A DNA stretch of 32,000 nt from Candidatus Saccharimonadota bacterium. GTDB taxonomy: Bacteria; Patescibacteriota; Patescibacteriia; 2-12-FULL-60-25. Every line of letters begins with the position of its first letter. Within the stretch, counting starts at the first letter, position 1. The DNA is taken from positions 300,001 to 332,000 of the forward strand of contig JALHOH010000001.1 in NCBI GenBank assembly GCA_022843095.1, read 5' to 3'. Shown piece by piece: positions 7,210 to 29,242 of the stretch. A program made the position numbers and the translations under genes. A model generated the notes under the pieces. It was given only the letters and a program-made list of their open reading frames with translations, did not search any database and was not told where the DNA came from.

Positions 7210-10200
7210 TTCCACGCCTATGACGCCGCGTCATCCCGAAGCTGCCGGGCCGTTGCAAGAAACGGCTGAGGCACTGCGTGCGCTTTCTACTTCGCCACAT
7301 GAGGCGATGCGCCCAGAAACCAAAACGCTTCAGCGTGAACTTCTTATGAAACACGCGTTGGGAGCGACGAATGCGGCACCGGAACAGGCGCCGACACCAG
7401 TACAAAAACCATCCACGGATGCTTCAAAGCGTCGGTGGTGGGTTCCGTTTAGCGGATTTGCCGCCGTGGCCGCGGTTATTTTGCTTGCGGTCATGGTTGC
7501 GCCAAAATTAGGGATCTTGCCGATGGGCGGACCCTCACAGGGGGCCATTGCGCGTATTTTGATCCCGGAAGCACATGCAGGCGATGTGTTTTCTGTGTTT
7601 GCGGAACATGCGGATGCGGCCGGGGCAAACACCGATTCCGCGTGGGTGGTCAAAGCGGGAATCGCGGTGAGCGAGGCGGAATTGAAAGAAACGCTCCGCA
7701 TTGTCCCGGAGATCCAGGTCGATGTGCAAAAAGTCGACAGCGAGACGTTTAAGATTATTCCAAAAGAACCGCTTGAACCGGGGAAGGTCTACAAGGTCGA
7801 GCTTGCCGCTGCCATCGATAAGGGAAATGGGCAAACGCAGACGCGTGATTTTAGCTGGGCGATTCAAACGAAATACGTCTTCCGGACCATTGCCACGATT
7901 CCGGGGGATCAGACGGGGAATGTGCCGGTGAACACGGGCATTGAATTCAAGTTTTCCTATCCGAACGTCGAAGATCCGAAGGATTTCTTCTCGATCACAC
8001 CGGGTGTGGCTGGGCGGTTTGAACAGCGCGGACGAACGGTGACGTTTGTGCCTGAAAAACCGCTTGCGTATGGCACGGCGTATGAAGTGCGCATGAAGCA
8101 AGGGTTTGGGGTGAAAGAGAGTGATTTGGGTCTTGCGGCAGACACGGTGGTGCGCTTTGAAACGCAGTCCAAGGAATCCGCGACCCAACAAGGGGCGTCT
8201 GCCGTGGTACGTCGATTTGTGCCGCGCGAGTTTAACGTCGTGACGCCGGGACAAGATCTCTTGCTGTTTGAGCAGGGGTGGTATGGCTACGGGGGCCCTG
8301 GGGTGGTTGCATGGGATCAGATTCCGGTTTCGATTGCTGCCTACCGTTTGGATGCGAACGCGGCAAAGGCGCTGTTTGCCGATCGGTTAACCATTCCGGA
8401 ATGGCAACCCGTGCGCGCGTCGGCGTATGAGGCTTATGCGACGCGTGTGGGAGGGGCGTCTCCTGCGTGGACAACGGAAGTGAAGCCGAGTCGAATGGAT
8501 GCGTATGGCCAATGGTATTTGCAGGTGCCTGCGCAAAAAGATCCGGGACTCTTCGTATTGAAGGTCACGCCGACGGCGGGGACGTCGACCTACGCGTTTG
8601 TGCAGGTCACGAAGAACGCGACGTATACGATTGCGGATACGGACACGTTGCAAGCGTGGGTCGTGGATGCAACCGCGAACAAAGCGCAGGAAGGGGTCGC
8701 CGTGCGCGCTGGGTCGCTTGCGGCAACGACGGATGCGCGTGGAATTGCACGGTTGCCGGTTGCAGAATTGCGTTCGACCTCAACCGCGTCCGCAACAGGA
8801 GAAGCGCCGTTCTTCTTGCTTGAAGTTGCCTCTGGAAACGACGTGTATCTTGGGGCGTTTCAGAAGGCGACGTTCCGGACCTCGGAATACTCCGCATTCA
8901 ATAGTTATGGTCCGCAGTTTGATACGTTCCAAACCTGGTCGTATCTCATGAGCGATCGCTCGTTGTATCGCGGAACTGATGCACTGGAATTGTACGGATT
9001 CGCACAGGATCGCACGTCCGGAAAGGGTGTTGGCGCTCTTGAGCTTGAACTGGTACGTGGGGGTGCCTGGAAGTGGCTTGGATATTTTGGAGAACGCACC
9101 ACAATTCAGACGCAAACCGTGAACACGGACGCAGGTGGTCACTACACGGGAACGTTCCGCTGGAACGATCTTGCGCCGGGGTACTATCAGGTGTTGGTGC
9201 GCAAGGCGGGATCGTCGTCGTATCTGACGCAAGTTGGATTTGAAGTGCGGGATTTTGTGAAGCCTGCATACACCGTCGATATCCAGGCCGAAAAACAACG
9301 CGTGTATGGAGGTGATGAGATCACCGGTCGTGTCCAAGCACGGTTCTTTGATGGCACGCCGCTTGCGAATACGCGTCTGACCGTTTCCGGAGATCAGTAT
9401 GGTCGCATGCTTCCGTCGCAGGAAATCGTGACTGACAAGGATGGCCAGGCGACGTATCGGATCAAGACGGAATTGCCCGTGTGTGGGAAGGATGTGGAAT
9501 TCTGTTATGGCGAGGAATACGTCGTTTTGACCGTCCGTCCGTCGGAAGGGGAAGAAGGGGATATCGTCGCTTCCGTGGGCGTGAGTGTGCTTCGGAGTGA
9601 GCTCGAAATTGAGGCAATGTCTCGTTCGACCGGGACGCGTGGAGAAATCCGTCTGCAGACGCGTCGTGCGACACTTGCTGTGGATCAGCCGTCAGCGACA
9701 TGGCCGGATCGGACGCTGCAGGTGAAGATCAAGAGCTTCCGTCATGAACAGATCGAAGACGGTACCTACTACGACTTTTACACCAAGACCACGTCGCCAA
9801 AATATCGCTATGAACGGAAAGAGGGTCCGGTGATCGAACGGAGCGTCAAAACGGATGCGTCCGGTTCGGTTGTGATCCCGTTCACGGTGGATCGTGATTA
9901 TTGGTATGAAGCCGAGGTAACCGGGGTAGATGATGCGAATCGTGCCATTCGGTTGCGACCGTATGTGTGGCTTGGATGGTGGGAATGGAATCCATTGAAC
10001 GTCGCCGAGCGGTATTGGGGGGATGATTATGTGGATGACCGCTGGGTGAACCTCGCGTTTACGCCGGATGAGAAGAAATATCAGTACGCAGAAGGCGAAC
10101 GTGTCGGCTTCGAGCTTCGTCGTGGGAAGAAACCGTTCCCTCTTGAAAAGACCCCTGGATTCTTGATGATGGTGGCAAGCCGTGGGTTAAAAGAAACGGC

Positions 10201-12496
10201 GTTGCAGACAAATCCTGGGTTTACGGTGTCATTCACCTCGGCGTACATCCCGAGTATGGAGGTGCGGACAGTCACCTTCTTTGAAGGACGGTTTGTGACG
10301 GCGCAGCGTTCGGTGCAGTTGGATACGACCTCGCGTGAGCTTCAGATTACGGCAACGCCGGATCGAACGTCGTATGCGCCGGGAGCGGAGGCGAAAATCA
10401 AGGTGCAGGTGCGTGATCCAAAAGGGAATCGTGTGCCAAACACGAACGTCGCGGTGACGGCGGTTGATGCAGCGGTAGAAGCGCTCGCGCCGTCTCAGTT
10501 CGTGTCGCCGCTCGCCATGTATGGGTATGTCTGGGATGGAATCGTGCACGAAGGATGGTCGCACGACTACGGCGATCCGTACGGGTTTGGCGGTGCCGAA
10601 AAGGGTGGCGGCGGATTTGGGGACATGGCACTCGCCAAGGCCTCTGTGCGCCGGAACTTCAAAGATACAGCCATCTTTACGCTGGCAAAGACGAACCAGG
10701 ATGGGGAGGCGACCGTCGCGTTCACGTTGCCGGATAACCTGACGACGTGGAACACCAAAGTCGCGGCCATCTCGGATACGTTGCTTGCAGGGGCAACCAC
10801 GACGGAAGTTGTTGTCTCGAAGGCGACGTTTGTAGATGCGGTGATCGCCCCTCGCTTGCTGACAAAAGATACGCCCGTCTTAAAACTCCGTGCCTATGGG
10901 ATTGGGCTTTCTGCGGGAGAGCAGGTGTCGTTTGTGGTGAAAGCGCCAACCCTTGGAATCAAGGAACAGCGCGTTGAGGGAAAGGCGTTTGAGCCCATGT
11001 ATCTCGCGATCGATCGACTGACCCCGGGGGCACACACGCTTGAGCTCTATGTGGGTTCGCGCGGGGACGTCGACGCGCTTGAACGCAAGATTGTCGTCGT
11101 GGATTCGCAATACGAAAAGGAAACCGAGATGCAGGTGGATGCTTTCCCGGGCGTCGGCTTGCCCGAGATCGGACGCGATACGGTCGCTGTGACGTTTACG
11201 AGCAAAGCCCAGGGGTCTTTGCTTCCGGAAGTGCGGGCACTGTGGGGGATGCAGTGGGATGCGCGCGTGGATGCACGGATCGCCGGTCGCGTGGGGGCAA
11301 AATTGCTTCGGGATCTCTACCGTTATCCGGACGTGGAAGAAGCGACGGAGAACCTACGCGTATTCCAGGATCTTCAAACCGGCGGGATCAAGTTGTTGCC
11401 GTATGGAGGGCCGGACGTAGAACTCACGGCCGACGTTGCGGCAACCGCGCCCGATCTGTTTGATCGCCAGTTGCTTGCTGCGTACTTCTACGGTCGTTTG
11501 GAAGACGGGTCAGTGAGTCGTGAAGAGCAGATTCAGGCTCTCGCAGGGCTTGCGGCGGTGGGAGAGCCGGTACTTCCTTCCATGGAAGACATGGCCGCTT
11601 TGGAAGATCTGAATCCGCGAGAAGCGCTTGCGCTTGGACGTGGGTTTGCCGCAGCCGGAGCCAAGGAGCGTGCGCGTCAGGTATTGGATGCGTTGCTTGC
11701 GCAGGTTGGAGAGACGCGTGGATCGGTGAAGGTGCTTAAGGTGTCGGACAAGGCAGCGGATCTCTTTGAGGCGACGGCGGATGCGGCGGCGCTTGCGGCG
11801 CAGACGGCGCATCCGGATGCAGAGATATTGATGGCGTATGTGCAGGAAACGTGGACGGAAGATGCCTTCCCGTTGCTTGCACGCGCACGGTATCTGCGTC
11901 AGGTGGCACCGCTTCGCCCGGCGGGAGACGTCTCGATCAGTTACACGGTGGATGGTGCGCGTGAAGAGACGATTTCGCTCCGCGAATGGCCTGTGGAACG
12001 TCGGTTCTACAGCAAAGCGCAGGCGCAATCCTTCCGCGTAACCAAGGTGACGGGTCCGGTCGTCCTTTCGGTGACGAAGACCGAGCCCGGACGCCCGAAT
12101 ACGACCGAAGGTCTCGCCATCACGCGTACGTATGACGCAGGGAAGCCGCTTTCCGAATTGAAAGAAGGGGATGCGGTGACGGTGAAGCTGCGTGTCGTGT
12201 ACAAGGACGCGGCTCAGGATGGGTGTTACGCCATTACGGATTATCTCCCGGGGAACTTCCAGCCCCTGATTACGGTCAATTATGGCTGGTGGGAGCGTTC
12301 CTGGTTCCCGTATGATGTTCGTGGAGCAAAGGTGTCGTTTGTGGGGTGTAAAGACACCAAGAACCCAACGGAGATCGAATATCAGGTGCGGGTGGTAGGA
12401 CGCGGAACCTACACGGCAGAGGCGCCAAATGTGCAACATCAGTCGCATCCAAGTCAGAGTGCGGTGGGTCAAGATACGGTGGTGACGGTGAAGTAA
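7193..12496 (+). CDS. Membrane-anchored giant alpha-2-macroglobulin-family protein (1767 aa) with an N-terminal cytoplasmic segment and Ig-like (SbsA/Big-type) and MG domains
   Basis: It has about 85 aa of cytoplasmic N-terminus followed by a TM helix (WWVPFSGFAAVAAVILLAVMV). The A2M hallmark FKDTAIFTLAKTNQDGEATVAFTLPDNLTTWNTKV is present. At the expected thioester site the sequence is LLPYGGPDVE rather than PYGCxEQ. The ATG at 7193 overlaps the sigma stop by 17 nt; an alternative ATG is at 7220. Confidence 0.8.
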   Translation: MDAQNNSTPMTPRHPEAAGPLQETAEALRALSTSPHEAMRPETKTLQRELLMKHALGATNAAPEQAPTPVQKPSTDASKRRWWVPFSGFAAVAAVILLAVMVAPKLGILPMGGPSQGAIARILIPEAHAGDVFSVFAEHADAAGANTDSAWVVKAGIAVSEAELKETLRIVPEIQVDVQKVDSETFKIIPKEPLEPGKVYKVELAAAIDKGNGQTQTRDFSWAIQTKYVFRTIATIPGDQTGNVPVNTGIEFKFSYPNVEDPKDFFSITPGVAGRFEQRGRTVTFVPEKPLAYGTAYEVRMKQGFGVKESDLGLAADTVVRFETQSKESATQQGASAVVRRFVPREFNVVTPGQDLLLFEQGWYGYGGPGVVAWDQIPVSIAAYRLDANAAKALFADRLTIPEWQPVRASAYEAYATRVGGASPAWTTEVKPSRMDAYGQWYLQVPAQKDPGLFVLKVTPTAGTSTYAFVQVTKNATYTIADTDTLQAWVVDATANKAQEGVAVRAGSLAATTDARGIARLPVAELRSTSTASATGEAPFFLLEVASGNDVYLGAFQKATFRTSEYSAFNSYGPQFDTFQTWSYLMSDRSLYRGTDALELYGFAQDRTSGKGVGALELELVRGGAWKWLGYFGERTTIQTQTVNTDAGGHYTGTFRWNDLAPGYYQVLVRKAGSSSYLTQVGFEVRDFVKPAYTVDIQAEKQRVYGGDEITGRVQARFFDGTPLANTRLTVSGDQYGRMLPSQEIVTDKDGQATYRIKTELPVCGKDVEFCYGEEYVVLTVRPSEGEEGDIVASVGVSVLRSELEIEAMSRSTGTRGEIRLQTRRATLAVDQPSATWPDRTLQVKIKSFRHEQIEDGTYYDFYTKTTSPKYRYERKEGPVIERSVKTDASGSVVIPFTVDRDYWYEAEVTGVDDANRAIRLRPYVWLGWWEWNPLNVAERYWGDDYVDDRWVNLAFTPDEKKYQYAEGERVGFELRRGKKPFPLEKTPGFLMMVASRGLKETALQTNPGFTVSFTSAYIPSMEVRTVTFFEGRFVTAQRSVQLDTTSRELQITATPDRTSYAPGAEAKIKVQVRDPKGNRVPNTNVAVTAVDAAVEALAPSQFVSPLAMYGYVWDGIVHEGWSHDYGDPYGFGGAEKGGGGFGDMALAKASVRRNFKDTAIFTLAKTNQDGEATVAFTLPDNLTTWNTKVAAISDTLLAGATTTEVVVSKATFVDAVIAPRLLTKDTPVLKLRAYGIGLSAGEQVSFVVKAPTLGIKEQRVEGKAFEPMYLAIDRLTPGAHTLELYVGSRGDVDALERKIVVVDSQYEKETEMQVDAFPGVGLPEIGRDTVAVTFTSKAQGSLLPEVRALWGMQWDARVDARIAGRVGAKLLRDLYRYPDVEEATENLRVFQDLQTGGIKLLPYGGPDVELTADVAATAPDLFDRQLLAAYFYGRLEDGSVSREEQIQALAGLAAVGEPVLPSMEDMAALEDLNPREALALGRGFAAAGAKERARQVLDALLAQVGETRGSVKVLKVSDKAADLFEATADAAALAAQTAHPDAEILMAYVQETWTEDAFPLLARARYLRQVAPLRPAGDVSISYTVDGAREETISLREWPVERRFYSKAQAQSFRVTKVTGPVVLSVTKTEPGRPNTTEGLAITRTYDAGKPLSELKEGDAVTVKLRVVYKDAAQDGCYAITDYLPGNFQPLITVNYGWWERSWFPYDVRGAKVSFVGCKDTKNPTEIEYQVRVVGRGTYTAEAPNVQHQSHPSQSAVGQDTVVTVK

Positions 12497-13456: not shown

Positions 13457-13906
13457 CTAGAAGAACCGGTGCAGCGCGTCGACCGGAGATTCTTTGAGTA
13501 CGTCTGCGTGGACTTCACGGAGAATTTTATCGTTCAGCTCCGTTGAAAGTGCTGCGCGAAGCGCATGGGCAATGTCCGCAGGCAGTGCCAAGAACACGCG
13601 TTCTGCGGAGCCACTCATGATCGCATCGTCGATGGTTTCGGCGATTTGCTCCACAAACCGTTTTTGACGTTCCTGTTCGGCATGATGTGGTTCGTTTGGA
13701 TGCGCCATGCCCGTACCGTTCCCTCCGGCGGTTTCACGGTCGGTTAAATACGTGCGAGGAACCGAAATGCCATCTAAATCTTCCATCGCATCATTCCCGA
13801 CCAAGTAGCATTGGGCGCGAAGATGATCGCCATAAATGACGAGGGTCGGGACGGGAAAATGGACGGCAAGGTCATGCGGGATCTGCATAGGAGAAAAGAA
13901 TACCAT
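13457..13906 (-). CDS. Host-attachment-protein family / bacterial eRF1-like (baeRF1) small protein
   Basis: The central segment RETAGGNGTGMAHPNEPHHAEQERQKRFVEQIAETID and the C-terminal RVFLALPADIAHALRAALSTELNDKILREVHADVLKESPVDAL match my recollection of the family layout. Confidence 0.5.
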   Translation of the reverse strand: MVFFSPMQIPHDLAVHFPVPTLVIYGDHLRAQCYLVGNDAMEDLDGISVPRTYLTDRETAGGNGTGMAHPNEPHHAEQERQKRFVEQIAETIDDAIMSGSAERVFLALPADIAHALRAALSTELNDKILREVHADVLKESPVDALHRFF

Positions 13907-17951: not shown

Positions 17952-18536
17952 ATGGAAAAAACTTTGGTACTGATTAAGCCGGACGGCGTTCAGCGCGGCT
18001 TGGTGGGTGAAATCATTGGGCGTTTTGAACGGGTGGGGCTCAAATTGGTCGCCATGAAGATGGTTCATGCCTCCCATGACGACGTGGATAAGCATTATGC
18101 GCTTACGGAAGAATGGATGAAGGCGGTTTACGACAAGGCAAAAGCGAAATATGAGGCAAACGGACAGCCGTTCCCATATCCGGATCACATTGCGTACGGG
18201 ACGGAGATCAAGCGTGGATTGGTGGATTTCCTGAAATCTTCCCCGATCATTGCCCTTGTTTTGGAAGGGGAGATGGCGGTGTCGTTGGTCCGGAAGCTAG
18301 TCGGGTCCACCGAACCGGCGAGCTCGGCCCCGGGAACGATCCGCGGCGATTTGTCCCACGATACCTACGCGCTTTCCAACACGCAGAACCGCCCGCTTCG
18401 CAACCTCATCCACGCCTCCGGGAATGTGGAAGAAGCGAACAACGAGATCAAGGTGTGGTTCACGGATACGGAGCTCTACAAGTACGAACACGTGAACGAT
18501 CGCGTGCAGTACGACCCCGCCTGGTTCATGAGCTAG
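17952..18536 (+). CDS. ndk: Nucleoside diphosphate kinase (expanded, 194 aa)
   Basis: KTLVLIKPDGVQRGLVGEIIGRFE, TIRGD and NLIHASGNVEEANNEIKVWF (active-site His) are present. There is an insertion of about 30 aa (LTEEWMKAVYDKAKAKYEANGQPFPYPDHIAYGTEIKRG) and a C-terminal extension. Confidence 0.9.
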   Translation: MEKTLVLIKPDGVQRGLVGEIIGRFERVGLKLVAMKMVHASHDDVDKHYALTEEWMKAVYDKAKAKYEANGQPFPYPDHIAYGTEIKRGLVDFLKSSPIIALVLEGEMAVSLVRKLVGSTEPASSAPGTIRGDLSHDTYALSNTQNRPLRNLIHASGNVEEANNEIKVWFTDTELYKYEHVNDRVQYDPAWFMS

Positions 18537-18541
18537 GCTGT

Positions 18542-18574
18542 AACCCCCGACCCCTGGTCGGGGGTTGCTTTTTT
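18542..18574 (+). terminator. Intrinsic terminator after ndk
   Basis: AACCCCCGAC-ccctg-GTCGGGGGTT followed by GCTTTTTT. Confidence 0.7.
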
Positions 18575-18614
18575 GCCAGTTTTTCGCAAGGATCGGTCTT
18601 GGAGGATGTGGTTC

Positions 18615-19949
18615 ATGGATGAACGGCAGCGATCCATTGATCGAGTCAGAACGTTATTCCCCGCGCTTGCCGCTTTTGACGCAGAGGACGCGTCGGGAGC
18701 GGGAAGTGAGGAAACAGAGGATCCGCACTCCATCCTGTATGGAGAAGGGAGGCGCTGGAAGCTCTTGCTCCGCGAGTTGGCGCGAGGCCTTGCCGTGGTA
18801 AAGCGGCAAGGGTTTTCTGCGGCGACGGCGCACGATTTCTTGCTGCGTCGTTTGCATGCGTACTACTTCGGGGATCTGCGTGACGGTGGTCGTCGCACGG
18901 TTCCAATGTATCGAGGGCGGCCAAGCGATTTTGAGGCGGATATGCGCCGATGGGAGCAATCCTGCCTGGATGTCGAGCGGACGTATCAGTACCTGTCGCG
19001 CTGGTTGCCGGAGGAGCTGAATGGGCGACGCATGACGGAGGTGCTGGAGCGCGGTCACGTAGCGGAGACGGATGATCCGCTTGAGCTCATCCGCCTTGCG
19101 GGGAGTCCGAATCGGAAGACGCGTCACTTCGCCCGATCAAAACTCGTTATGGCGCAGTTCTCGATGGAGCAGCGTCGGCATGGATATGACCCGTCTGCGC
19201 TGCAAAGCGAACGACGGGATCTGGAGTCCTTTCTGGACCGAGTGCTGTTCCAGGAGCCGGAAGGCGATGCAGTTTGGCTCATTGCAGAGCTGGATCCGAA
19301 GGACCGGTATCGCTGCATCGCTTACCACATCCTGACAGATGAGAACGCGCCACCTGAGTCGTCCGCAAGTCGGTACCAGGTGCGACTGGAACGACGGTGG
19401 ATTCGGGTCGCAGGACGATCTGACCCGGTTCCCGTGTTCTTTTTCCACCGGGTGAAAGAACACATTATCCTGAAAGCACTCACCAAAGACGAGCGGTTCC
19501 TGGAACTGCTCGATTTGGGAGATGCGATCGCCATGATGTTCGTCATGGATCGCGAAGAGATGGATGCGGTGACTCCGGCCATCCGGCGTGTGCTTGTTCC
19601 GTGTCCGGGGCAAGTATGTAATCAAGGGTCCAGCGTCGGATTTCGGATGGGGAACGGACGGCTGGATCCGGCCAACCCTCATTCGAGCCAAACCTACGAA
19701 GCGCAAAAGTACAATGCGTTGGTCTGCGACCGTGTCGTCGAAGTCCAGTTTGTCCCGGTGAGCGCCTGGGTGAACGCACGCACGATGGTGGGTGAGGTCA
19801 ACCATCTGTACTACAAGTTGCGGAAACATCTAAACGACGTGTTTCCTGTGCTGTTTCCGCGAGGACTCTTCGGAGTCGACTGGTCGGATGTACAGGTCCA
19901 GGGGATGTGCCAAGCGCATGTTCGCCGGCGCGTCGCTCCTGAATCATGA
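18615..19949 (+). CDS. Hypothetical protein with a C-terminal divergent RelA/SpoT-like (small alarmone synthetase fold) nucleotidyltransferase domain
   Basis: GGAGG at 18601-18605 lies 9 nt before the ATG at 18615; the track start at 18573 sits inside the ndk terminator. The C-terminal motifs occur in the order FHRVKEHIILKALTKDERF, LDLGDAIAMMFVMDREEMD, TYEAQKYNALV, VVEVQFVPVSAWVNARTMVGEVNHLYYK. These resemble the RxKxxxSxxxK, DxxGxR, YxSxH and ExQxRT..W..HxxYK elements. I am more confident that this is a real CDS (about 0.8) than in the domain call. Confidence 0.4.
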   Translation: MDERQRSIDRVRTLFPALAAFDAEDASGAGSEETEDPHSILYGEGRRWKLLLRELARGLAVVKRQGFSAATAHDFLLRRLHAYYFGDLRDGGRRTVPMYRGRPSDFEADMRRWEQSCLDVERTYQYLSRWLPEELNGRRMTEVLERGHVAETDDPLELIRLAGSPNRKTRHFARSKLVMAQFSMEQRRHGYDPSALQSERRDLESFLDRVLFQEPEGDAVWLIAELDPKDRYRCIAYHILTDENAPPESSASRYQVRLERRWIRVAGRSDPVPVFFFHRVKEHIILKALTKDERFLELLDLGDAIAMMFVMDREEMDAVTPAIRRVLVPCPGQVCNQGSSVGFRMGNGRLDPANPHSSQTYEAQKYNALVCDRVVEVQFVPVSAWVNARTMVGEVNHLYYKLRKHLNDVFPVLFPRGLFGVDWSDVQVQGMCQAHVRRRVAPES

Positions 19950-19953
19950 ACGG

Positions 19954-19984
19954 AACCGCCCTGGATTCTTGGGGCGGTTTTTTG
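19954..19984 (+). terminator. Intrinsic terminator after the RelA/SpoT-like gene
   Basis: AACCGCCC-tggattcttg-GGGCGGTT followed by TTTTT. Confidence 0.65.
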
Positions 19985-19986
19985 AT

Positions 19987-20014
19987 TTGACGCGATTCCA
20001 CGATGCGGTATCGT
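19987..20014 (+). promoter_or_regulatory. Sigma70-like promoter (TTGACG-16 nt-TATCGT) heading a leader of about 240 nt
   Basis: The hexamers lie at 19987-19992 and 20009-20014, immediately after the preceding terminator. Confidence 0.3.
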
Positions 20015-20172
20015 AGGGATAAGAGTCGCGTGAGGATTCGGGCTAACATTCAGCTGAGGAGACGTGATCTAGGGTATGCGCCGTGGCGCAGCTGTGATGT
20101 CTCCAGCGGTACGTTTCCACCTTGCGTTTGTCCGTGCTGGATCACTCTGGCGCGTTCGACGAATGGCGGTGT

Positions 20173-20214
20173 GAGCCCACTTACCAACAGCCGAATGCCT
20201 CACGGGCTCTTTTT
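20173..20214 (+). promoter_or_regulatory. Terminator-like element within the leader (GAGCCC..GGGCTC plus T5), with a competing GTGAG/CTCAC pairing
   Basis: GAGCCC at 20173-20178 pairs with GGGCTC at 20204-20209 and is followed by TTTTT. GTGAG at 20171-20175 can instead pair with CTCAC at 20199-20203. The element lies 40 nt upstream of the SD-ATG of the next gene. Confidence 0.3.
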
Positions 20215-20255
20215 CGTTTGCGCGTGTGTTATGGTGATAAAGAGGAGGAGTATTG

Positions 20256-20753
20256 ATGGGACAAATACCGGTGTGTTTTATCGCAAAGTCGGTTGCAGAA
20301 TTGGAGCGCGCACGTCGTTTGCGTGCCCAGAGCGAAGGGAGGGATGTGATCGGAGAATCTTCTCTTGATGTCCTGCGTGAACAAGCCTTTACGGTGGTTC
20401 GGGAGCGCGCAGAGGTCCTGAATGTCGGGGGGTTCGAAAGCGGTCAATTTCCCGTGCGTCGCTCTTCGGACGCTGCGGGTGATGAGGAGGTCATGTGGCT
20501 GACGCAGGCATGCGGATTGGTATTTGAGCTTACCTATCCGGATATGCGGGTCCACGGACTTCTTGGGATCGGCGCCCTTGCTCTGAATCATCCAACGCTG
20601 ATCTTGGTGCATAAGACGTTTGCAATTCCGTCGAATACGATCACGGAACGATCTAACGTGCAGGTCTACGGGTATGATTCTTTGAAAGGGATTGTCTCTA
20701 CCGTGGAGACGTTTCTTGCAGGAATCAAGCTCCCCGCTCGTCTTGCTCGATAA
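20256..20753 (+). CDS. Hypothetical protein, 165 aa
   Basis: A strong Shine-Dalgarno sequence (GAGGAGGAG, 20241-20249) lies 6 nt before the ATG at 20256; the track start at 20253 is TTG. No recognisable motif. A terminator follows. Confidence 0.65.
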   Translation: MGQIPVCFIAKSVAELERARRLRAQSEGRDVIGESSLDVLREQAFTVVRERAEVLNVGGFESGQFPVRRSSDAAGDEEVMWLTQACGLVFELTYPDMRVHGLLGIGALALNHPTLILVHKTFAIPSNTITERSNVQVYGYDSLKGIVSTVETFLAGIKLPARLAR

Positions 20754-20754
20754 G

Positions 20755-20789
20755 GCCCGTTCACGCCTGTTGGACGGGCTTTCTTTTTG
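20755..20789 (+). terminator. Intrinsic terminator after the 165-aa gene
   Basis: GCCCGT-13 nt loop-ACGGGC followed by TTTCTTTTT. Confidence 0.55.
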
Positions 20790-21032
20790 TCTTGCCTGGT
20801 TTTCTTCGTTCTGATACATTTTCCCCGCTCGCGCAGAATCAGCCCCCGGGCCCCCGTTTCCCGAGGTCCGCCGAAGCAATGGGGTACGCGTAGGTTCTGG
20901 AAGGGGTTAGCGAGCGAAGTGAGCGCGAAGGGGAAACCTGGATACAGGTTGCCACTCGAAGCGCAGCGATTGCGCAGACCTAAGTGAGCCTCGAAAGATG
21001 TGAACGGGTGGTCAGCGCAATAACGCGAGTAC

Positions 21033-21537: not shown

Positions 21538-22344
21538 TTACCCCGCGATCATTCGAGGGGTTTGTTGGACGTAGGCGAGAAGATCGTCGCTCGAGAACGT
21601 CTCACGGATAATGGGTTCCCACACGTTTCGGATCGGCGGCTCTGCCGTTGGATTGACGGAGCGGACGTGCGTGTAGTGGGGCGCCAGTGTTCCGGTGTCC
21701 GGGTCTCGCCTGGTGTAGTGGATCACCTGGCAGTTGTGGATGCGATCCTCGGGTTTCTTTGAGGTATGACGCTCCACGAATCGTTGCGATGACCACCGTT
21801 CGATGAGGACACGGAACGCCCACATGGTCTCCCCGTGCAGAACCAGGATGACGGACTTATCCGAGCACTCACGATGGAGGGTTTCGAGGACGCGGTCGAT
21901 CCGACCGCACGTATCTGCGATCGATTCTCCGTTTGGAGGCGTCCAGAAGAACGGTTCCGTCTGTCGACGTTCGAGTGTGTGCGTGAACTGTTGGCGACGC
22001 TCCGTATCCGTGAGCGGTTCGAGATCTCCGCCATCGCGTTCGCGGAGATAGAGGTTCTGCCGCCAGCGGACGTCCGGAAGATTCAGTCGAGCAGCCGTCT
22101 CGAGCGCTCGGATGTACGGAGACACGTACGCGCGATCGAAGCGGCCCCCGTTTAGGTTGGCGCGGATCCACGCGCCTGCCGCTTCGGCCTGGTGAATGCC
22201 GCGGTCGGTCAACCGCCAGCTCGAGCTATGACGCGCCCGAAATTCATCCGTATAGTGCCTCGAGTCTCCTTTTTGCGAGGCGTGTTGCGCAGCATTCCCT
22301 TCGGATTCTGCATGGCGAACCAGTACGCAATCGACAGGCATCAT
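21538..22344 (-). CDS. Histidine phosphatase (phosphoglycerate mutase-like) family protein with a C-terminal extension
   Basis: VLVRHAESEGN (RHG motif), SPYIRALETA, LRERDGGDLE and VLHGETMWAF are present. A Shine-Dalgarno sequence (AGGAGAAGGA) precedes the ATG at 22344. Confidence 0.8.
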   Translation of the reverse strand: MMPVDCVLVRHAESEGNAAQHASQKGDSRHYTDEFRARHSSSWRLTDRGIHQAEAAGAWIRANLNGGRFDRAYVSPYIRALETAARLNLPDVRWRQNLYLRERDGGDLEPLTDTERRQQFTHTLERRQTEPFFWTPPNGESIADTCGRIDRVLETLHRECSDKSVILVLHGETMWAFRVLIERWSSQRFVERHTSKKPEDRIHNCQVIHYTRRDPDTGTLAPHYTHVRSVNPTAEPPIRNVWEPIIRETFSSDDLLAYVQQTPRMIAG

Positions 22345-22417
22345 GATGGATCCTTCTCCTTGTTTGAGGTGCTTCTGGCAGCTTTGCAATTTTTTTCGTG
22401 CTGGGCAAGGGGGCTTG

Positions 22418-23611
22418 TTACAGCACCTCCAAGATCGCCGTCTTCAGATAACGTCCTTCGGGAAACGACAGGAGCTCTGGGTGATCCGCCGGTTGTGTGA
22501 GCCACTCGATGACGCGTACGCGTTTTTTGGCGCGTCCTGCGGCAAGGCGTAGCAGATCGCGAAACATATCTTCAGTCACGCGCCCCGAACAGGAGCTCGA
22601 AACGAGTATGCCACCGGGCGAAAGCCGCTCAAAACAGGCTTGATTCAGCGTGGTATAGGCGCGTATGGCTTGCGGGAGATGACGTTCTGATTTCGCGAAG
22701 GCTGGGGGGTCGCAAATGATGAGGTCGTAGGGGCCGCCGGGCGTTTCCGGATCCGCGAGGAGCTCCAGAACATCTGCCTCCAAGAACAGCGTCTTTGTTT
22801 CATCCGAAGGGGAGAGATCGTTCATCGCAAAATGGCGTTCTGCCTGCACCAGGGCACGGCGAGAAATGTCCACGGTTGCCACAAATGCTGCGCCCCCTTT
22901 TGCGGCGTGGATGGAAAATGCGCCCGTATATCCAAACAAGTTCAACACGCGGCGATTCCGCGCCAGCCGTCCAACCGTGCGTCGCGCCTCACGCTGATCC
23001 AAAAAGAATCCCGTCTTTTGTCCCTCTTTGATATCCGCCAAGAACCGGATTCCATCTTCCAAAAACGGCGCTTCGACGGCGTCTCCTGCGTGAGAGAGTA
23101 CAGGAGTATCCTTTAAGCCCTCGCGTGTTCGGACCTCGACATCCGATCGTTCAAGGATGGTTGCAGGAGAAAATACAAGACCAATGGCCTGCACAATGTC
23201 GGCACGCAACCGATCCATGCCCGCGGTGTGTAGTTGAAAAACGCACGCATCGCCGTAGCGATCAAGGATAAGTCCGGGGAGGCCATCTGCCTCGGCGTGG
23301 ATGACGCGGTATCCCGTGGTCTGCGCGGGAAGTCGAGCGCGTTTCCAGGCATCGCGTTCACGAAAACGCTCGGCAAACCAGCGGGCGTCAATGGTGGCCG
23401 AAGGATCGGTGGTAAGCAGACGCACGGCAATATCCATCGTTGGATGGTACGTTCCAAGTCCAAGTGGTGAATGATCCGCGGCTTCAATCCGCACGATTTC
23501 GCCCGGTTCGACGCGGGGGGCACGGGCAATGGCCTGCGAAAAAATCCACGGATGACCACCGCGGATGGGAGCGTCCTTTCCGGGACGTAGGGTAAGAGTC
23601 GGGAATGTCAT
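22418..23611 (-). CDS. RlmI-like class I SAM-dependent rRNA methyltransferase (PUA plus MTase domains)
   Basis: N-terminal LRPGKDAPIRGGHPWIFSQAI, a SAM-binding motif VLNLFGYTGAFSIHAA, and IICDPPAF. Confidence 0.8.
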   Translation of the reverse strand: MTFPTLTLRPGKDAPIRGGHPWIFSQAIARAPRVEPGEIVRIEAADHSPLGLGTYHPTMDIAVRLLTTDPSATIDARWFAERFRERDAWKRARLPAQTTGYRVIHAEADGLPGLILDRYGDACVFQLHTAGMDRLRADIVQAIGLVFSPATILERSDVEVRTREGLKDTPVLSHAGDAVEAPFLEDGIRFLADIKEGQKTGFFLDQREARRTVGRLARNRRVLNLFGYTGAFSIHAAKGGAAFVATVDISRRALVQAERHFAMNDLSPSDETKTLFLEADVLELLADPETPGGPYDLIICDPPAFAKSERHLPQAIRAYTTLNQACFERLSPGGILVSSSCSGRVTEDMFRDLLRLAAGRAKKRVRVIEWLTQPADHPELLSFPEGRYLKTAILEVL

Positions 23612-24030
23612 GCGACCTCGACGGGAGGAAACGCCTCTTCTTCGTCGGTCGGAGCTTGGCGCGGAGTGATGACGCGGTCAAGAAGATATCCAAGAAGTGC
23701 CGTGGCAAGCAGACCGGCGTGAATGTATTTTTCAAAGGGGTAGAGCGCCAACGTTTTTGTGGCGGTAGGGACAAGCCAGGTGTAGGCGGTGAATCCCGCA
23801 AGCAGGAGCGTGTTGGTGTGATACCAGCGCGGAACCCAGACATCCGGTTCTTTCCAGCCAATCTGGAGCGCACCGATCGAAAACACAAGGAAGGCAAAAA
23901 AATAAAAGGCGCGTGGCCGTAATCCCTGGGTGAATAGGTCGTACAACATGGGGGCGAACGCCGGGTAATACAGAATCGCAAGCGTTCGGACGGCGTAGCG
24001 CATGCCGGAATAGGTCGTCGAGGAAGGCAT
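23608..24030 (-). CDS. Hypothetical integral membrane protein, 140 aa (about 4 TM helices)
   Basis: This is the hydrophobic C-terminal part of the 304-aa track ORF. The upstream part of that ORF overlaps the Nudix gene out of frame, so the start is set at the ATG at 24030. The stop overlaps the rlmI-like start (ATGA). Confidence 0.55.
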   Translation of the reverse strand: MPSSTTYSGMRYAVRTLAILYYPAFAPMLYDLFTQGLRPRAFYFFAFLVFSIGALQIGWKEPDVWVPRWYHTNTLLLAGFTAYTWLVPTATKTLALYPFEKYIHAGLLATALLGYLLDRVITPRQAPTDEEEAFPPVEVA

Positions 24031-24091
24031 AGTCGTAGTGTACCTTATGACGGAGTTGAAAAAAACCCGTCCAGTGGGTCGGAGCGGGTTG

Positions 24092-24541
24092 TCAGGGATG
24101 TTTTGGGTAAAACCGGCACAGGACCTCCCACATATCGGGGACGAATTGTGAGGGGGCGAGCGTACGCCAGTTGTGCCATTCAGCGGCGGTGTGCTCGGTC
24201 GGCGAGAGGATGATGGGAGGAGGGATTTCCATCCGGAGTTCCCAGGAATAGTACAGGAAGTCCATTTCGGCAGTCCGGACACCGAGATCTTCTTTGCGCA
24301 CGAGTCGCGCTTCATCGGTGGTGAGATCAAGCCCGGTTTCTTCGCGTACTTCACGAAAGAGCGTCGTCTGGATCGGTTCCCCGGCATCCGCTTTTCCTGC
24401 CGGTACGCCGTAGCGGCCAGGGTACGGTTTCTTTCCCGCTCGTTTGAGGAGCAGAAGTCCTGCGGGGGACCATAAAAGAAGCGATGCGACACGCATCTGG
24501 GGCGTGAATGTTTCTGGCGCACGCCGCGTCGAAAAGATCAT
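24092..24541 (-). CDS. Nudix hydrolase
   Basis: A complete Nudix box is present, GKADAGEPIQTTLFREVREETGL (Gx5Ex7REUxEExGU). A Shine-Dalgarno sequence (AGGAGG) lies upstream. Confidence 0.85.
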   Translation of the reverse strand: MIFSTRRAPETFTPQMRVASLLLWSPAGLLLLKRAGKKPYPGRYGVPAGKADAGEPIQTTLFREVREETGLDLTTDEARLVRKEDLGVRTAEMDFLYYSWELRMEIPPPIILSPTEHTAAEWHNWRTLAPSQFVPDMWEVLCRFYPKHP

Positions 24542-25307: not shown

Positions 25308-26450
25308 ATGCATATCCTTCTGGATGCCCGCATGATGGGACCGCTCGCAACGCGCGGGATCGGGCGCTATATCGAGGAACTGGTCCGCGCCTTGCTTCAG
25401 TTGAATACGGACGACACGTACACCCTCCTCGTCCGATCACTGGAAGGATCGCCGTTTTTATCGCATCCGCGCGTGACGCATGTGCACACGGATGTGCCGT
25501 GGTACGGCCTGCGCGAGCAGTGGGCGATGCCGTCTCGTTTGCGGATGGAGGCGGATGTGGTGCATGTGCCGCACTGGAATGTCCCGCTTGGATATCGCGG
25601 AGAACCATTGGTCGTGACGATCCATGATTTGCTGCTCTACCACCAAACGACGAGCGCAAAAGCGTCGCGACGTCATCCGTTTGTGCGCAAGGCAAAGGCA
25701 TGGGGACATCGTCTGACGGTGTCGCATGCGGTGACGACGGCGGGACGCATTCTTGTGCCAACCCAGGCGGTTGCAGCGGATGTCGCGCGGTTTTTCCCGC
25801 AGGACGCAGAAAAAATCGTGGTGACAGGCGAGGGGGTGACGGCGCTTCCCACGGGAGACGCACGGTTACTTGAGACGCACCATCTCCGTCCACACCAGTA
25901 CCTGTTGTATGTGGGGAGTGCGTATCCACATAAACGTTTGGATGTATTGCTCGCCGCCTGGAAAGGGATGGAGGCAAAGTATCCGACCCACGAGCTCGTG
26001 ATCGCCGGAGAAGAGGATGTGTTTATGGCGGAGTACATTGCGCAGGTCAAGAAAGAACGGATTCCGCGCGTGCGTTTTACGGGACGCATTCCGGATGCGA
26101 TGTATGCCACCCTCTTAGAGCAGGCGAGTGCGTTTGTGTATCCAACGTCGTTTGAGGGGTTTGGGCTTCCGCCGCTTGAGGCGTTGTCGAAAGGAACGCC
26201 TGTGATTGCCAGTGATATCGCGGTGTTGCGCGAAGTGTTGCCGTCCGATGGAGTGCGGTTCTTCCGAATGGGCGAGCGAGATGATATGATGCGAACGATC
26301 GACCACGTGCTGCGCGATCGGGCAAAGATTCAAGAACGTGTTCATGCCCTCCGTTCAGAGGTGTTCAGCCGCCATCGGTGGTTGGATGCCGCAGAACGCA
26401 CCCGCGCCGCGTATGCACGAGTCGCATCGCCATCACAACGGGGTTCATGA
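25308..26450 (+). CDS. Glycosyltransferase family 4 (GT1/GT-B fold)
   Basis: N-terminal MHILLDARMM..RGIGRYIEEL and the C-terminal EX7E region PTSFEGFGLPPLEALSKGTPVIAS. An alternative ATG lies at 25299; the track start at 25194 is unlikely. Confidence 0.85.
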   Translation: MHILLDARMMGPLATRGIGRYIEELVRALLQLNTDDTYTLLVRSLEGSPFLSHPRVTHVHTDVPWYGLREQWAMPSRLRMEADVVHVPHWNVPLGYRGEPLVVTIHDLLLYHQTTSAKASRRHPFVRKAKAWGHRLTVSHAVTTAGRILVPTQAVAADVARFFPQDAEKIVVTGEGVTALPTGDARLLETHHLRPHQYLLYVGSAYPHKRLDVLLAAWKGMEAKYPTHELVIAGEEDVFMAEYIAQVKKERIPRVRFTGRIPDAMYATLLEQASAFVYPTSFEGFGLPPLEALSKGTPVIASDIAVLREVLPSDGVRFFRMGERDDMMRTIDHVLRDRAKIQERVHALRSEVFSRHRWLDAAERTRAAYARVASPSQRGS

Positions 26451-29242
26451 GGATGTCTGCCCATGTCCCGCCGGAGGATCAGGCGGCGTTGGAAGCTCAG
26501 CTTGCCAAGGTCGTTGAACGTGAGGGAGTCACGTCGTTTGTCCCCCGCGGAATTAAGCGCCGGAAGCGGTCGCGCGCAACGCATCGTGAGCGCGTGGTTT
26601 TGGCGATCCGTGCAGAGGGTCCATCCGGAGAGGATATCGTGCGCGCTTCCGACCATGCATTGGTGCGACAGGTCACGGGAATCGCGACGCCCGGAGCAAG
26701 GGGGAATCGGTGGGTGGCGGTGCGGTATGGGGAGCATGTCGAGAGTCCGCATGTGTTGCGGGTTGGAGCGTTGGCGAGCAAACGCGTCGTGGAAACGCGG
26801 ACTCCAACGGATGTGGCGGTGAAGCATTGGCTTGCACCATATCAAGAACCGCCGTCACTTTCTGCATTGGCGGCTGAGGTGAATGATCTGTACGTCGGGG
26901 AAATTGACCCGCGTTTTTTCGTGGAACAGTTTACCCCCGCGCATCCGGAGATCGCGTTTCGCGAATCGTACAGTCTGTGGGCTCGAATCCGCCGGCCGTT
27001 TGTTCGGTGGGAGGTCTCCCGCGTTGCCCCGGCTTCTGTGTCGGTTGCGTCGGCATCTGCTGCCTCCGCGATGGTCCTGGAATCTCCGATTATCGCGATG
27101 GCGCCCGTCACCGTAGAGGAGCAATTTACGGCGTCTGATCCGGATGCTGCCTATCGGGCCCGGTTTGGGATCGCGGCACGCATCGGGCAGGCGATGAAGC
27201 GGTGGTTTTCCCGTGCGGACGCCCTGGTCGAAGAGGTGCGTGATTACGAGCATGATTTAGTCGCGGAAGCGCAATCCGCATGGCAGGTGCCGGTCATGGT
27301 GCCAAAGCTCGACTTGGTGCGCGTCATGGGCGGATTTATCGGGCTCATGGCGATCGTGTCCCTGCCGGCGGGCGCGGTCTCGTTGTCGCGTTCGTTCGGA
27401 TCGAGTGTCTTGGTTGCGGAGCGGCAGGGGAACGAGGCCCTTGCGCTTTCCATCGCCGCGGTTGGTGCGGACGGCGCGCGTGCAGATGGGTTTGCGGCAG
27501 CATCCCGTCGGTTTGCGGACGCCGAAAAGACCCTTCTTCAGGCAAATGCCATCGGTTCGGCCATCGCTCGCGCGCTTCCGGAGACACGCGCAAAAATCAA
27601 GACAGCAGAGGCGTTGGTTGAAGCCGGAAAAGACGCATCACAGGCCGCATCTTTATTGGCGCGCGCCATGGATCGTCTCTTTGCCGATGAAGGTCGGCCT
27701 GATGAACGCGCACTCCTTTTTGCCACCAACTTGGATGCCGCGGCGCCTGCCTTGGAACGCGCGGAAAAGCGCCTGCAGGAAGTGGATCCATCGGCGTTGC
27801 CTCCAGAACTTCGTGACCAGGTTGTTCTCATGCGTTCCATGCTTGGAGAGGCGCGGATGACCCTGCGTGAAACGCGTCGCATGGCGGCGATCCTTCCGGA
27901 TCTGTTGGGGCATGATCTTTTCCGAACGTATTTGCTGGTGTTTCAAAATCAGACCGAATTACGCCCCACCGGAGGATTCATGGGGTCATTGGCAGAGGTG
28001 CAGGTCGATCGCGGCGCAATTACCAAGGTCCAGGTTCCAGGAGGAGGACCGTATGATCTCCGGAGTCAGTTAAAGGTCCGTGTCCAACCGCCCAAGCCGT
28101 TGCAATTGGTGGGGGGGCGATGGGAGTTTCAGGATGCTAACTGGTTTCCGGATTTTCCGACGTCTGCTGCAAAGATTCGTTGGTTTTGGGAAAAAAGCGG
28201 TCAGCCCACGCTGGACGGCGTGATCGCGGTGAACGCAACGATCATGGAGGATGTCTTGCGTGTATTGGGCCCTGTCGAACTTCCTGCGTACGGAAAAACA
28301 ATTACCGCGGAAAATTTTCATTTCGAAACGCAAAAAGCCGTGGAATTGGAATACGACAAGGCAGAAAATAAGCCAAAGAAAATCATCGGAGATCTCATGG
28401 CGATCCTCATGGAGCGCGTGAAGACGGCGGATCGGGACACGCGGATGAAACTGGTACAAATCGCCGCGTCGGCGTTGGAGACAAAGGAAATCCAGCTCGC
28501 ATTCTTCCGACCCGAAGAACAGTCGGTGGTTCAGGATTTTGGATGGAGCGGGGTCATGCCACCGGTGCAGGGGGATGCGCTTTCTCTCATTACGGCAAAC
28601 ATCGCGGGTCAAAAGTCCGATGCAGAAGTCAAGGAATCCATTCGTCTGGTAGTGAATGCAGCGAAAGATGGAACGCTCACAAATACCGTGACCATTACGC
28701 GCCGTCATGAAGGGCAAAAGGGTGCGCTGTTTACGGGTGCGAACAACGTTGCGTATCTCCGTCTCTACGTTCCAAAAGGGGCAACGCTTCTTACTGCAGA
28801 GGGGTTTCATCCACCTGTGGCACACTACTTTGAAGAGCCGCTTCCAGAAGACACGGTGGATCCGGATATCGCGCGTCTCGTGACACCAAAGTCAAGCTCG
28901 GTCGCTGGAGTCGATATCACCGAGGAATTTGGGCGTACGGTGTTTGGTGGATGGGTCCAAGTGGCTCCGGGGAACGAGGAGGTGACGACGTTTACCTATC
29001 AGTTACCGTTTACGTTGGATGATGTCGGACGCAAGCTTGGAACGGGATCACCCGACGAGAAAACGCGCGCTGCGTATACGCTGCTTCTTGGAAGTCAGTC
29101 TGGTACGCCGCATCGCACCGTGGAGGTGAAGCTGAATCTTCCTACAACCCTTGTTCCTGATTTTCGACACGGATTTACCGAGACGCTTTCTGCGACTTCC
29201 ACGTGGGATCGTGATCGTGTATTGGGGGTGTTGTTTCGCTAA
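26447..29242 (+). CDS. DUF4012 domain membrane protein with an N-terminal cytoplasmic extension of about 290 aa
   Basis: The start overlaps the GT4 stop (ATGA). A TM helix is present (VMGGFIGLMAIVSLPAGAV). The DUF4012 hallmark LLGHDLFRTYLLVFQNQTELRPTGGFMGSLAEVQVDRGAI is present. Confidence 0.8.
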   Translation: MRMSAHVPPEDQAALEAQLAKVVEREGVTSFVPRGIKRRKRSRATHRERVVLAIRAEGPSGEDIVRASDHALVRQVTGIATPGARGNRWVAVRYGEHVESPHVLRVGALASKRVVETRTPTDVAVKHWLAPYQEPPSLSALAAEVNDLYVGEIDPRFFVEQFTPAHPEIAFRESYSLWARIRRPFVRWEVSRVAPASVSVASASAASAMVLESPIIAMAPVTVEEQFTASDPDAAYRARFGIAARIGQAMKRWFSRADALVEEVRDYEHDLVAEAQSAWQVPVMVPKLDLVRVMGGFIGLMAIVSLPAGAVSLSRSFGSSVLVAERQGNEALALSIAAVGADGARADGFAAASRRFADAEKTLLQANAIGSAIARALPETRAKIKTAEALVEAGKDASQAASLLARAMDRLFADEGRPDERALLFATNLDAAAPALERAEKRLQEVDPSALPPELRDQVVLMRSMLGEARMTLRETRRMAAILPDLLGHDLFRTYLLVFQNQTELRPTGGFMGSLAEVQVDRGAITKVQVPGGGPYDLRSQLKVRVQPPKPLQLVGGRWEFQDANWFPDFPTSAAKIRWFWEKSGQPTLDGVIAVNATIMEDVLRVLGPVELPAYGKTITAENFHFETQKAVELEYDKAENKPKKIIGDLMAILMERVKTADRDTRMKLVQIAASALETKEIQLAFFRPEEQSVVQDFGWSGVMPPVQGDALSLITANIAGQKSDAEVKESIRLVVNAAKDGTLTNTVTITRRHEGQKGALFTGANNVAYLRLYVPKGATLLTAEGFHPPVAHYFEEPLPEDTVDPDIARLVTPKSSSVAGVDITEEFGRTVFGGWVQVAPGNEEVTTFTYQLPFTLDDVGRKLGTGSPDEKTRAAYTLLLGSQSGTPHRTVEVKLNLPTTLVPDFRHGFTETLSATSTWDRDRVLGVLFR

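Follow-up and report, generated by a model that had tools for sequence, protein, structure and literature searches.

A probable RelA/SpoT-type catalytic core in a protein encoded between ndk and a candidate structured RNA in Uhrbacteria-like bacteria

A protein of 444 amino acids, encoded by a gene that we call gene X, is found directly downstream of ndk in a 32,000-nucleotide stretch of contig JALHOH010000001.1 (assembly GCA_022843095.1, Candidatus Saccharimonadota bacterium; forward-strand positions 300,001 to 332,000). This stretch is referred to as the window; its close relatives are labelled Candidatus Uhrbacteria, and its GC content is 53-61%. The contig that carries gene X is 683 kb long, as would fit a small genome of the candidate phyla radiation. 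Gene X occupies 18573/18615-19949 on the + strand, as seen in the open reading frame (ORF) listing, with the 444 residues counted from the ATG at 18615; a GGAGG Shine-Dalgarno sequence can be read directly at 18601-18605 (+), 9 nt before this ATG. The ndk gene (17952-18536, +) codes for a nucleoside diphosphate kinase (NDK) of 194 amino acids (Pfam NDK, E 1.4e-39), and the ndk/X junction carries a terminator-like hairpin at 18540-18574 (+; stem 18540-18568; 13 pairs, 9 GC) that runs into a T-run. A second hairpin of this kind, again with 13 pairs and a T-run, stands right after the X stop codon at 19952-19985 (+; stem 19952-19981). An earlier note on this DNA had described the ORF with its Shine-Dalgarno sequence and the two strong flanking hairpins, and all of these are present. 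Sites combining a hairpin and a T-run number 18 in the 8-kb region, versus 9.7 +/- 2.6 in shuffled sequences. Downstream of X the order is a structured RNA of ~195 nt (20021-20215, +), the orphan ORF165, tRNA-Phe, tRNA-Gly, and genes for a histidine phosphatase, an RlmI-like methyltransferase and a Nudix protein; upstream of ndk, on the opposite strand, lie the genes for L32, NusB and RNase III.

Single-sequence searches with X gave no match in Pfam, NCBIfam, PADLOC or PDB, and none to the RelA/SpoT family PF04607 at E <= 10. The 33 nearest relatives of X likewise matched nothing in Pfam (PF04607 included), NCBIfam, PADLOC or PDB; profiles built from six and from 33 sequences retrieved no RelA/SpoT homolog (RSH) from PDB, and alignment of the near family with one RelQ sequence by hhalign was not significant (E 0.25). 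Relatives were found by two routes. A word-indexed search of 5.8 billion clustered proteins returned five, at 39-43% identity, and a hidden Markov model (HMM) of the six-sequence alignment, run exhaustively against 1.8 billion representatives, returned 204 proteins at E <= 1e-3. Three profiles were made from these, A3 from the 33 nearest relatives, A2 from 143 sequences and A4 from the distant members; superfamily conservation figures refer to the alignment of 143 of the 204 members. In a search with the library size fixed at 1.8 billion, A3 recovers all distant members at E <= 5e-13, which ties X to the wider group.

It is through the distant members that the connection to known enzymes emerges. 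PF04607 was matched by 13 of the 110 scanned distant members at E <= 0.01 (best E 6.5e-8); the matches inspected extend over positions 1-93 of the model and score 16-22 bits, under the gathering cut-off of 27. The profile search against PF04607 suggested in the earlier note therefore yielded a transitive link and no direct match to X. Against PDB, the A2 profile found solved Rel/RelA structures (E 7.8e-7), and nine distinct chains scored below 1e-3; in this alignment RvK...ilKml...vrDrcGlrfvv falls on GRPKHIYSIYRKM...IYDLLAVRILV of Rel. A4 aligned with Bacillus subtilis RelQ by hhalign at E 3.6e-5 (probability 71%), over 162 columns that run through the RxK, Asp and ExQ elements; the RelQ sequence used was checked and is identical to PDB 5DED. 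With X as master, the paired segments are HRVKE..HIILKALTK and GRVKPVASILEKARRK, LGDAIAMMFV and MQDIAGLRIM, and VVEVQFVP and LVEIQIRT. Two uncharacterized NCBIfam families with no assigned function, TIGR04552 and TIGR04562, were weakly matched by 5-6 of the 110 distant members (E ~1e-5) and by neither X nor its near family.

A structure of X was predicted with AlphaFold2, initially from six sequences, at a mean predicted local distance difference test score (pLDDT) of 72.8; the top eight Foldseek matches of that model in PDB were all RSH enzymes, and weak. It was replaced by a model from 33 sequences, with a pLDDT of 90.2 and a predicted TM-score of 0.89, for which the top 21 PDB matches are all RSH enzymes, SpoT and CapRel among them. 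The best E value belongs to RelSeq (1vj7_A; E 4.7e-4, probability 0.99, 431 aligned columns), and RelQ (5ded_B) was matched with probability 1.00 and a TM-score of 0.41 normalized to RelQ. An exported Streptomyces small alarmone synthetase (SAS) and FaRel2 rank lower, and for nucleotidyltransferases outside the RSH family (GLD-2, poly(A) polymerase, Pol X, GrpB) the E values are no better than 0.6-2. In the viral Foldseek library the top matches are phage proteins annotated as RelA/SpoT (probability 1.00), and a phage Tas1 is also listed. The earlier note had read the C-terminal half of X as a divergent RelA/SpoT-type fold and had proposed a structural search; transitive profiles, hhalign and two independent Foldseek libraries agree with that reading. 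Because transitive profile homology and Foldseek agree, we place an RSH-type catalytic core at residues ~271-425 and regard this fold assignment, which is a modeled one, as very probably correct.

X can be divided into three regions. Residues 1-140 (18615-19034, +) form a helical domain that is specific to the near family, with P16, G43, R47 and Y99 invariant. Residues 141-270 (19035-19424, +) consist of two long helices (167-210) and a four-strand β insertion (218-263); the helices are common to the superfamily, and distant members align from profile position ~140 on. The RSH-like catalytic core, residues 271-425 (19425-19889, +), is delimited by conservation, by mapping onto Rel and RelQ, and by the predicted fold. 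The N-terminal ~280 residues had been described as helical; residues 1-210 are, whereas residues 213-280 form four β-strands. That the N-terminal region matches nothing known holds for its first ~140 residues, for which an N-terminal-only profile covering 13 lineages gave no match in PDB or Pfam. A degenerate (pseudo-)HD domain was considered for this region and rejected: no HD or Rel profile match was obtained and conservation is missing at the His and Asp residues that could have served in such a domain, the sole hint of an HD-like N terminus being the length of the Foldseek alignment to RelSeq. No TGS/ACT region follows the core; X ends ~20 residues past it and contains no Pfam domains.

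Within the core, R279 (19449), K281 (19455), D303 (19521), E376 (19740) and H397 (19803) stand out, together with K287, N354, S357, S358, K365, Q378, Y400, K401, P415 and a conserved loop, 329-363. Invariant in six homologs are R279, K281, K287, K291, R294, G302, D303, K365, Y366, E376, Q378, H397, Y400 and K401, and the four motif segments picked out in the earlier note, which are present at about nt 19443-19817, coincide with such residues. Across 143 sequences, K281 and E376 are conserved at 100%, D303 at 99%, Y400 at 95%, R279 at 93% and K287 at 91%; judged from this alignment, residue conservation across the superfamily is far beyond chance, and its consensus can be written RxKxxxxxxLK...DxxGxxxV...ExQ...NHxxY.

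These residues map onto the synthetase motifs as had been proposed, R279/K281 on GRVK of RelQ, D303 on DiaGlR and E376/Q378 on EiQ. The RxKxxxSxxxK motif is present and aligns with GRPKHIYSIYRKM of Rel and GRVKPVASILEK of RelQ, its Ser being Leu in X. In DxxGxR, D303 aligns with D72 of RelQ; X has Ala where 76% of members have the Gly, and the Arg is Met in X, at a position that is not conserved in the superfamily. In ExQxRT, E376 and Q378 (72%) align with vEiQirT of RelQ, and RT is replaced by VP, with Thr found in many distant members. YxSxH was not found in X, which has N354...S357-S358...K365-Y366 instead and no His at the equivalent position. K291 and R294 are kept in the near family, and an H397-x-x-Y400-K401 element is kept as well. 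Loop 329-363 stands where the canonical enzymes have their acceptor-binding segment. Although AlphaFold2 models it with the lowest confidence (pLDDT 58-65), it is one of the most conserved stretches of X: identity within the near family is 47-66%, and N354, S357, S358 and K365 are conserved at 74-87% superfamily-wide. Retention of the ATP- and metal-binding side together with this different loop on the acceptor side suggests an active phosphotransfer center with a remodeled acceptor site.

Neighboring genes were compared across additional loci, which were obtained by scanning metagenomes with a degenerate DNA pattern derived from E-x-Q-(17)-x-H-x-x-Y-[KR]-(9)-P-x-L-F-P. The scan gave 102 stretches, and an HMM recognized a family member in 89 of them; pooled with the loci collected before, these make up 31 lineages at <60% identity, 27 of them evaluable for ndk by direct search of all ORFs per locus. 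ndk adjoins X in 19 of these 27 lineages, upstream on the same strand in 17, and in 19 of the 21 that belong to the core family (HMM score >250 bits). Unbiased clustering of neighbors also placed NDK first, the next most frequent cluster reaching only 8 lineages. The NDKs linked to X are themselves highly diverged, at E 1e-131 to 1e-22 versus the window NDK, and the ndk-X pair occurs in at least two synteny frames, RNase III-NusB-L32 | ndk-Nramp-X and ComEC-MBL-ndk-X. Upstream ndk is thus the recurrent protein partner of X, one that the earlier note overlooked. The genes flanking the pair are otherwise of the housekeeping kind (RNase III, NusB, L32, tRNAs).

The spacing between the two genes varies from 1 to 2026 bp; in the window it is 36/78 bp, and five lineages have gaps of 1, 3, 22, 27 and 28 bp. 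Where the gap is at least 78 bp, ndk is often followed by its own hairpin and T-run (L059, L112, L043). Insulation by terminators, seen in the earlier note as a property of this gene, therefore needs restating: the hairpins exist and partial insulation recurs, so that it is not window-specific, but in the many relatives with a gap of 1-28 bp it does not apply because the gap is too short to leave a terminator any room. All close relatives carry a gene for an Nramp (MntH-like) transporter between ndk and X (L001 6669-7964; L005-L010), which is absent across the 32-kb window, where the ndk/X junction spans just 18537-18614; the window lineage either lost Nramp at this junction or never gained it. 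As an obligatory partner Nramp was rejected, being present only in lineages 1, 2 and 8. The conserved array is ndk-(Nramp)-X-small RNA.

Distant subfamilies lack ndk, including a high-GC group of 52 loci and fusions with NUDIX. In 11 loci of the high-GC subfamily (lineage 0, 52 loci, L018-L109), a repeat-rich, secreted-looking protein of ~1150 amino acids is encoded ~39 bp downstream. The fusions are distant members of ~730 amino acids with a C-terminal NUDIX domain, found at L015 6001-8181 (P0104) and also as P0112, P0115, P0124 and P0130; by analogy with the SYN-HD arrangement of long RSH enzymes, they may be synthetase-hydrolase fusions. One such locus, when examined, had the look of a defense or mobile island, with DruA, a DUF87 ATPase, an AAA_11/12 helicase and HTH_17. 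A locus labelled 'uncultured Gammaproteobacteria' (L009, CAYZVS010000001.1) shows Uhrbacteria-type synteny, with NDK, NusB and RNase III 78-81% identical; its taxonomic label is probably wrong.

The ~195-nt RNA of the window scores 137.7 bits with covariance model R1. Just upstream of it, at 19987-20014 (+), is a promoter-like site composed of TTGACG, a 16-nt spacer and TATCGT, and relatives have an extended -10-like TGnTAThCT at the matching place (alignment columns 25-40). The RNA has a long closing stem, an invariant asymmetric internal loop of 11 nt (AUUCGGGCUAA), three inner hairpins and a terminator-like 3' end. It was found on the same strand as X, usually 40-220 nt past the stop codon, in lineages 1, 2, 3, 5, 8, 13 and 20, with copies at L001 9398-9606, L010 11489-11683 and L098 3888-4085 and, on the - strand, at L064 290-487, L059 198-385 and L024 5031-5227. 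Loci that had no part in building the covariance model are among the matches, with E values of 8e-35 to 5e-8. In an alignment that was fitted to the covariance model, 88.8% of cells are paired versus 41-47% with slid partners, and compensatory changes occur in 38 of 60 pairs versus 13-22 in slid controls, with 0 of 500 shuffles reaching the observed value. No match was found in Rfam at E <= 10, ARAGORN detected no transfer-messenger RNA, and the covariance model detected no copy beside the shorter ndk-linked subfamily. The RNA is a candidate new RNA family. A suggestion that surrounding RNAs could be partners of X is upheld as far as a conserved RNA 3' of X in seven lineages goes; the tie may be functional or one of synteny. 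At L001, a public 105-residue gene call (9445-9762) overlaps tRNA-Phe (9656-9730); its apparent conservation is that of the tRNA, and the call is spurious.

Other neighbors had been put forward as partners in the earlier note, namely ORF165 and, as pure speculation, the histidine phosphatase and the Nudix protein; none of these co-occurs with X at any other locus, and they were rejected. ORF165 (20256-20753, +) has a strong Shine-Dalgarno sequence and its own terminator, a third hairpin of the kind described above, at 20752-20782; it is called in the NCBI record. Its coding score is 0.27 bits/codon; confident genes score 0.20-0.42, and the antisense ORF216 scores -0.25. It has no family match in Pfam, NCBIfam or PADLOC and no homolog in 5.8 billion clustered proteins or in related loci, the sole copy elsewhere being one at >= 90% identity on a 1.5-kb contig (P0155). 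The gene lies inside a stretch of ~800 bp (20220-21030), between the RNA element and tRNA-Phe, that is absent from all relatives. ORF165 is probably a real coding gene, a lineage-specific orphan outside the conserved module; the proposed test of its co-occurrence with X found it absent from all other X loci. The histidine phosphatase gene (21538-22389, -) and the Nudix gene (24092-24541, -; 149 amino acids, with a clear Nudix box, GKADAGEPIQTTLFREVREETG) are both window-specific neighbors. Clustering of neighbors revealed no recurrent small partner gene beside X. A 304-residue ORF (23608-24522, -) overlaps the Nudix ORF, with a coding score of -0.10 and no Pfam match; of the two, the Nudix gene is probably the genuine one. 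Elsewhere the window encodes a Host_attach/baeRF-family protein (13457-13906, -; E 9e-12), a DUF4012 protein of 954 amino acids (26378-29242, +) and an unannotated ORF of 1767 amino acids (7193-12496, +).

Given these observations, the likeliest reading is that X, a chromosomal and vertically inherited gene, encodes a strongly diverged version of the RSH synthetase fold. We propose that its product is an active pyrophosphokinase with a remodeled acceptor site in Uhrbacteria-like members of the candidate phyla radiation (CPR), and put the probability of this reading as a whole at roughly 55%. ATP-Mg2+ would be bound through R279, K281, K287 and D303, and E376 would activate the hydroxyl of the acceptor, to which the β-γ pyrophosphate of ATP would be transferred. 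This mechanism of pyrophosphoryl transfer, with ATP, Mg2+ and Glu, is established for the RSH synthetases RelSeq and RelQ. Since the minimal RSH catalytic set is kept, pyrophosphate transfer is most likely retained, and the conserved residues incline us, on balance, to take X for an active pyrophosphokinase. Since YxSxH and the Arg and Thr of ExQxRT are replaced by the family loop 329-365, the enzyme might make (p)ppGpp or a related nucleotide, or another product altogether. Linkage to ndk points to the pool of nucleoside di- and triphosphates, from which an alarmone-type product would follow; it would fit a role in sensing or controlling that pool, rather than that of a toxin, and we hold the housekeeping alarmone-type role as tentative, at slightly less than even odds. 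The helical N-terminal domain of the near family may be regulatory, gating the activity.

Among known systems, RelQ/SAS1 (B. subtilis YjbM, PDB 5DEC/5DED) and RelP are, like X, stand-alone chromosomal proteins with no hydrolase domain. RelQ/SAS1 is the best structural match at the level of the domain, and its RxK, Mg2+-binding Asp and ExQ align with X through the distant-member profile. X is twice as long, however, with the unique ~140-residue N-terminal domain and the four-strand β insertion. Its counterpart of DxxGxR has no Arg, that of ExQxRT has no RT, and YxSxH is absent; X also has no PF04607 match and is linked genetically to ndk and a structured RNA. The long RSH enzymes (RelSeq 1VJ7, Rel 8ACU/6YXA, SpoT 7QPR) give the best Foldseek E values and profile matches, and X resembles their N-terminal half in layout, with a helical N-terminal part followed by the synthetase domain, at a similar size. 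Unlike them it has no HD hydrolase signature and no TGS/ACT, and the global superposition is poor (root mean square deviation [rmsd] ~21 Å). The toxic SAS (toxSAS) enzymes CapRel (7ZTB), FaRel2 (8PU4) and PhRel, and the secreted effector Tas1, belong to the fold family of X and appear in the Foldseek lists, with toxSAS structures at lower rank (E 0.16-0.85); X differs from them in having no conserved bicistronic partner, no match to a defense library and a housekeeping context. TIGR04552 and TIGR04562 are weakly matched by distant superfamily members and not by X.

Several observations weigh against the proposed role. Homology of X to RSH enzymes is transitive, with no significant direct match of X or its near family to PF04607, Rel or RelQ, and the Foldseek TM-scores are low (<= 0.41, normalized to RelQ; rmsd 7-8 Å). 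Three canonical elements are absent from X, namely Arg in DxxGxR, His in YxSxH and RT in ExQxRT; it may therefore use another substrate or be inactive. Two core lineages have no ndk beside X (L012, L068), and the adjacency could be inherited synteny in one deep clade and not a functional link. X is only 38-43% identical between relatives whose neighboring genes are at 69-90%, which is fast for a core regulator.

The alternative that survives best, unlikely as we consider it, keeps the RSH fold and gives it another chemistry or target: a non-nucleotide acceptor, the 3' end of the adjacent RNA, or the role of a pseudoenzyme, a nucleotide-binding regulator, for example, of NDK. It would account for the replacement of YxSxH and of the RT of ExQxRT by a strongly conserved loop, and for conservation of the RNA with X in seven lineages. 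On the ATP and metal side, however, the residues vary little or not at all among 143 sequences, and this favors catalysis; no observation ties the RNA mechanistically to X, and the shorter ndk-linked subfamily lacks a detectable RNA.

The earlier note had suggested that X may be a toxSAS-like or alarmone-related effector. A toxSAS-like effector would arrest growth or act against phage by pyrophosphorylating tRNA or making (pp)pApp, and would be held in check by its N-terminal domain, ORF165 or an RNA antitoxin. CapRel is a precedent for a fused regulatory domain, and the rapid divergence of X relative to its neighbors, the presence of CapRel, FaRel2 and Tas1 in the Foldseek lists, and the defense-island-like context of NUDIX-fused distant relatives (DruA, DUF87 ATPase, large helicase) would suit such an effector, as would a conserved structured RNA directly downstream and tRNA genes nearby. 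Known type III antitoxin RNAs are repetitive, though, and this RNA is not, carrying promoter-like and terminator-like signals of its own. A conserved operon of two or three genes with an adjacent antitoxin gene is the indicator of toxSAS (PMC7229694). No conserved protein gene adjoins X, and ORF165 is an orphan; PADLOC recognizes neither of them and gave one marginal match (E 6.8e-4) among 110 relatives; housekeeping synteny and the ndk linkage are conserved; and Foldseek places RelSeq and RelQ well above toxSAS structures. We therefore set the toxin-antitoxin framing aside as improbable.

Least probable of all, and largely refuted, is that the RelA/SpoT likeness is superficial and X an unrelated α/β protein or a generic Pol-β-type nucleotidyltransferase: the missing direct sequence match, the low TM-scores and the other nucleotidyltransferases at E 0.6-2 are outweighed by convergence of transitive HMM links, the PDB profile, hhalign and both Foldseek libraries on RSH, and by a motif order with single Asp and Glu residues that fits RSH and not the DxD pattern carried by classical nucleotidyltransferases.

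The pyrophosphokinase reading leaves us with a family so far found only in Uhrbacteria-like CPR bacteria, inside a wider unannotated superfamily. Pfam, NCBIfam and PADLOC all fail to detect it, and its fold and proposed chemistry are of a known kind; what is new is the N-terminal domain, the remodeled acceptor loop and the linkage to ndk and an RNA, a linkage of which literature searches found no description. Such searches also returned nothing relevant on RSH or ppGpp in CPR/Patescibacteria, and no canonical RSH was seen in the 0.93 Mb examined, a sample that is uninformative about whole genomes. RelA/SpoT-type enzymes can evade Pfam, NCBIfam and defense models, so for such lineages a survey that finds no RSH may be mistaken. 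The ndk linkage offers a concrete hypothesis on the substrate pool of X, and the remodeled acceptor loop may mean a new product. CPR/Patescibacteria account for much of the diversity of bacteria; their genomes are tiny, they rely on nucleotide salvage, and how they sense starvation is little understood. It is conceivable, if rather doubtful, that ndk, X and the ~195-nt RNA form a CPR-specific nucleotide-signaling module in which X, a cryptic RSH-like pyrophosphokinase that standard annotation overlooks, exerts alarmone or stringent-type control, with the RNA as its regulator or substrate; control of this kind otherwise seems to be missing from these minimal bacteria, which depend on salvage.

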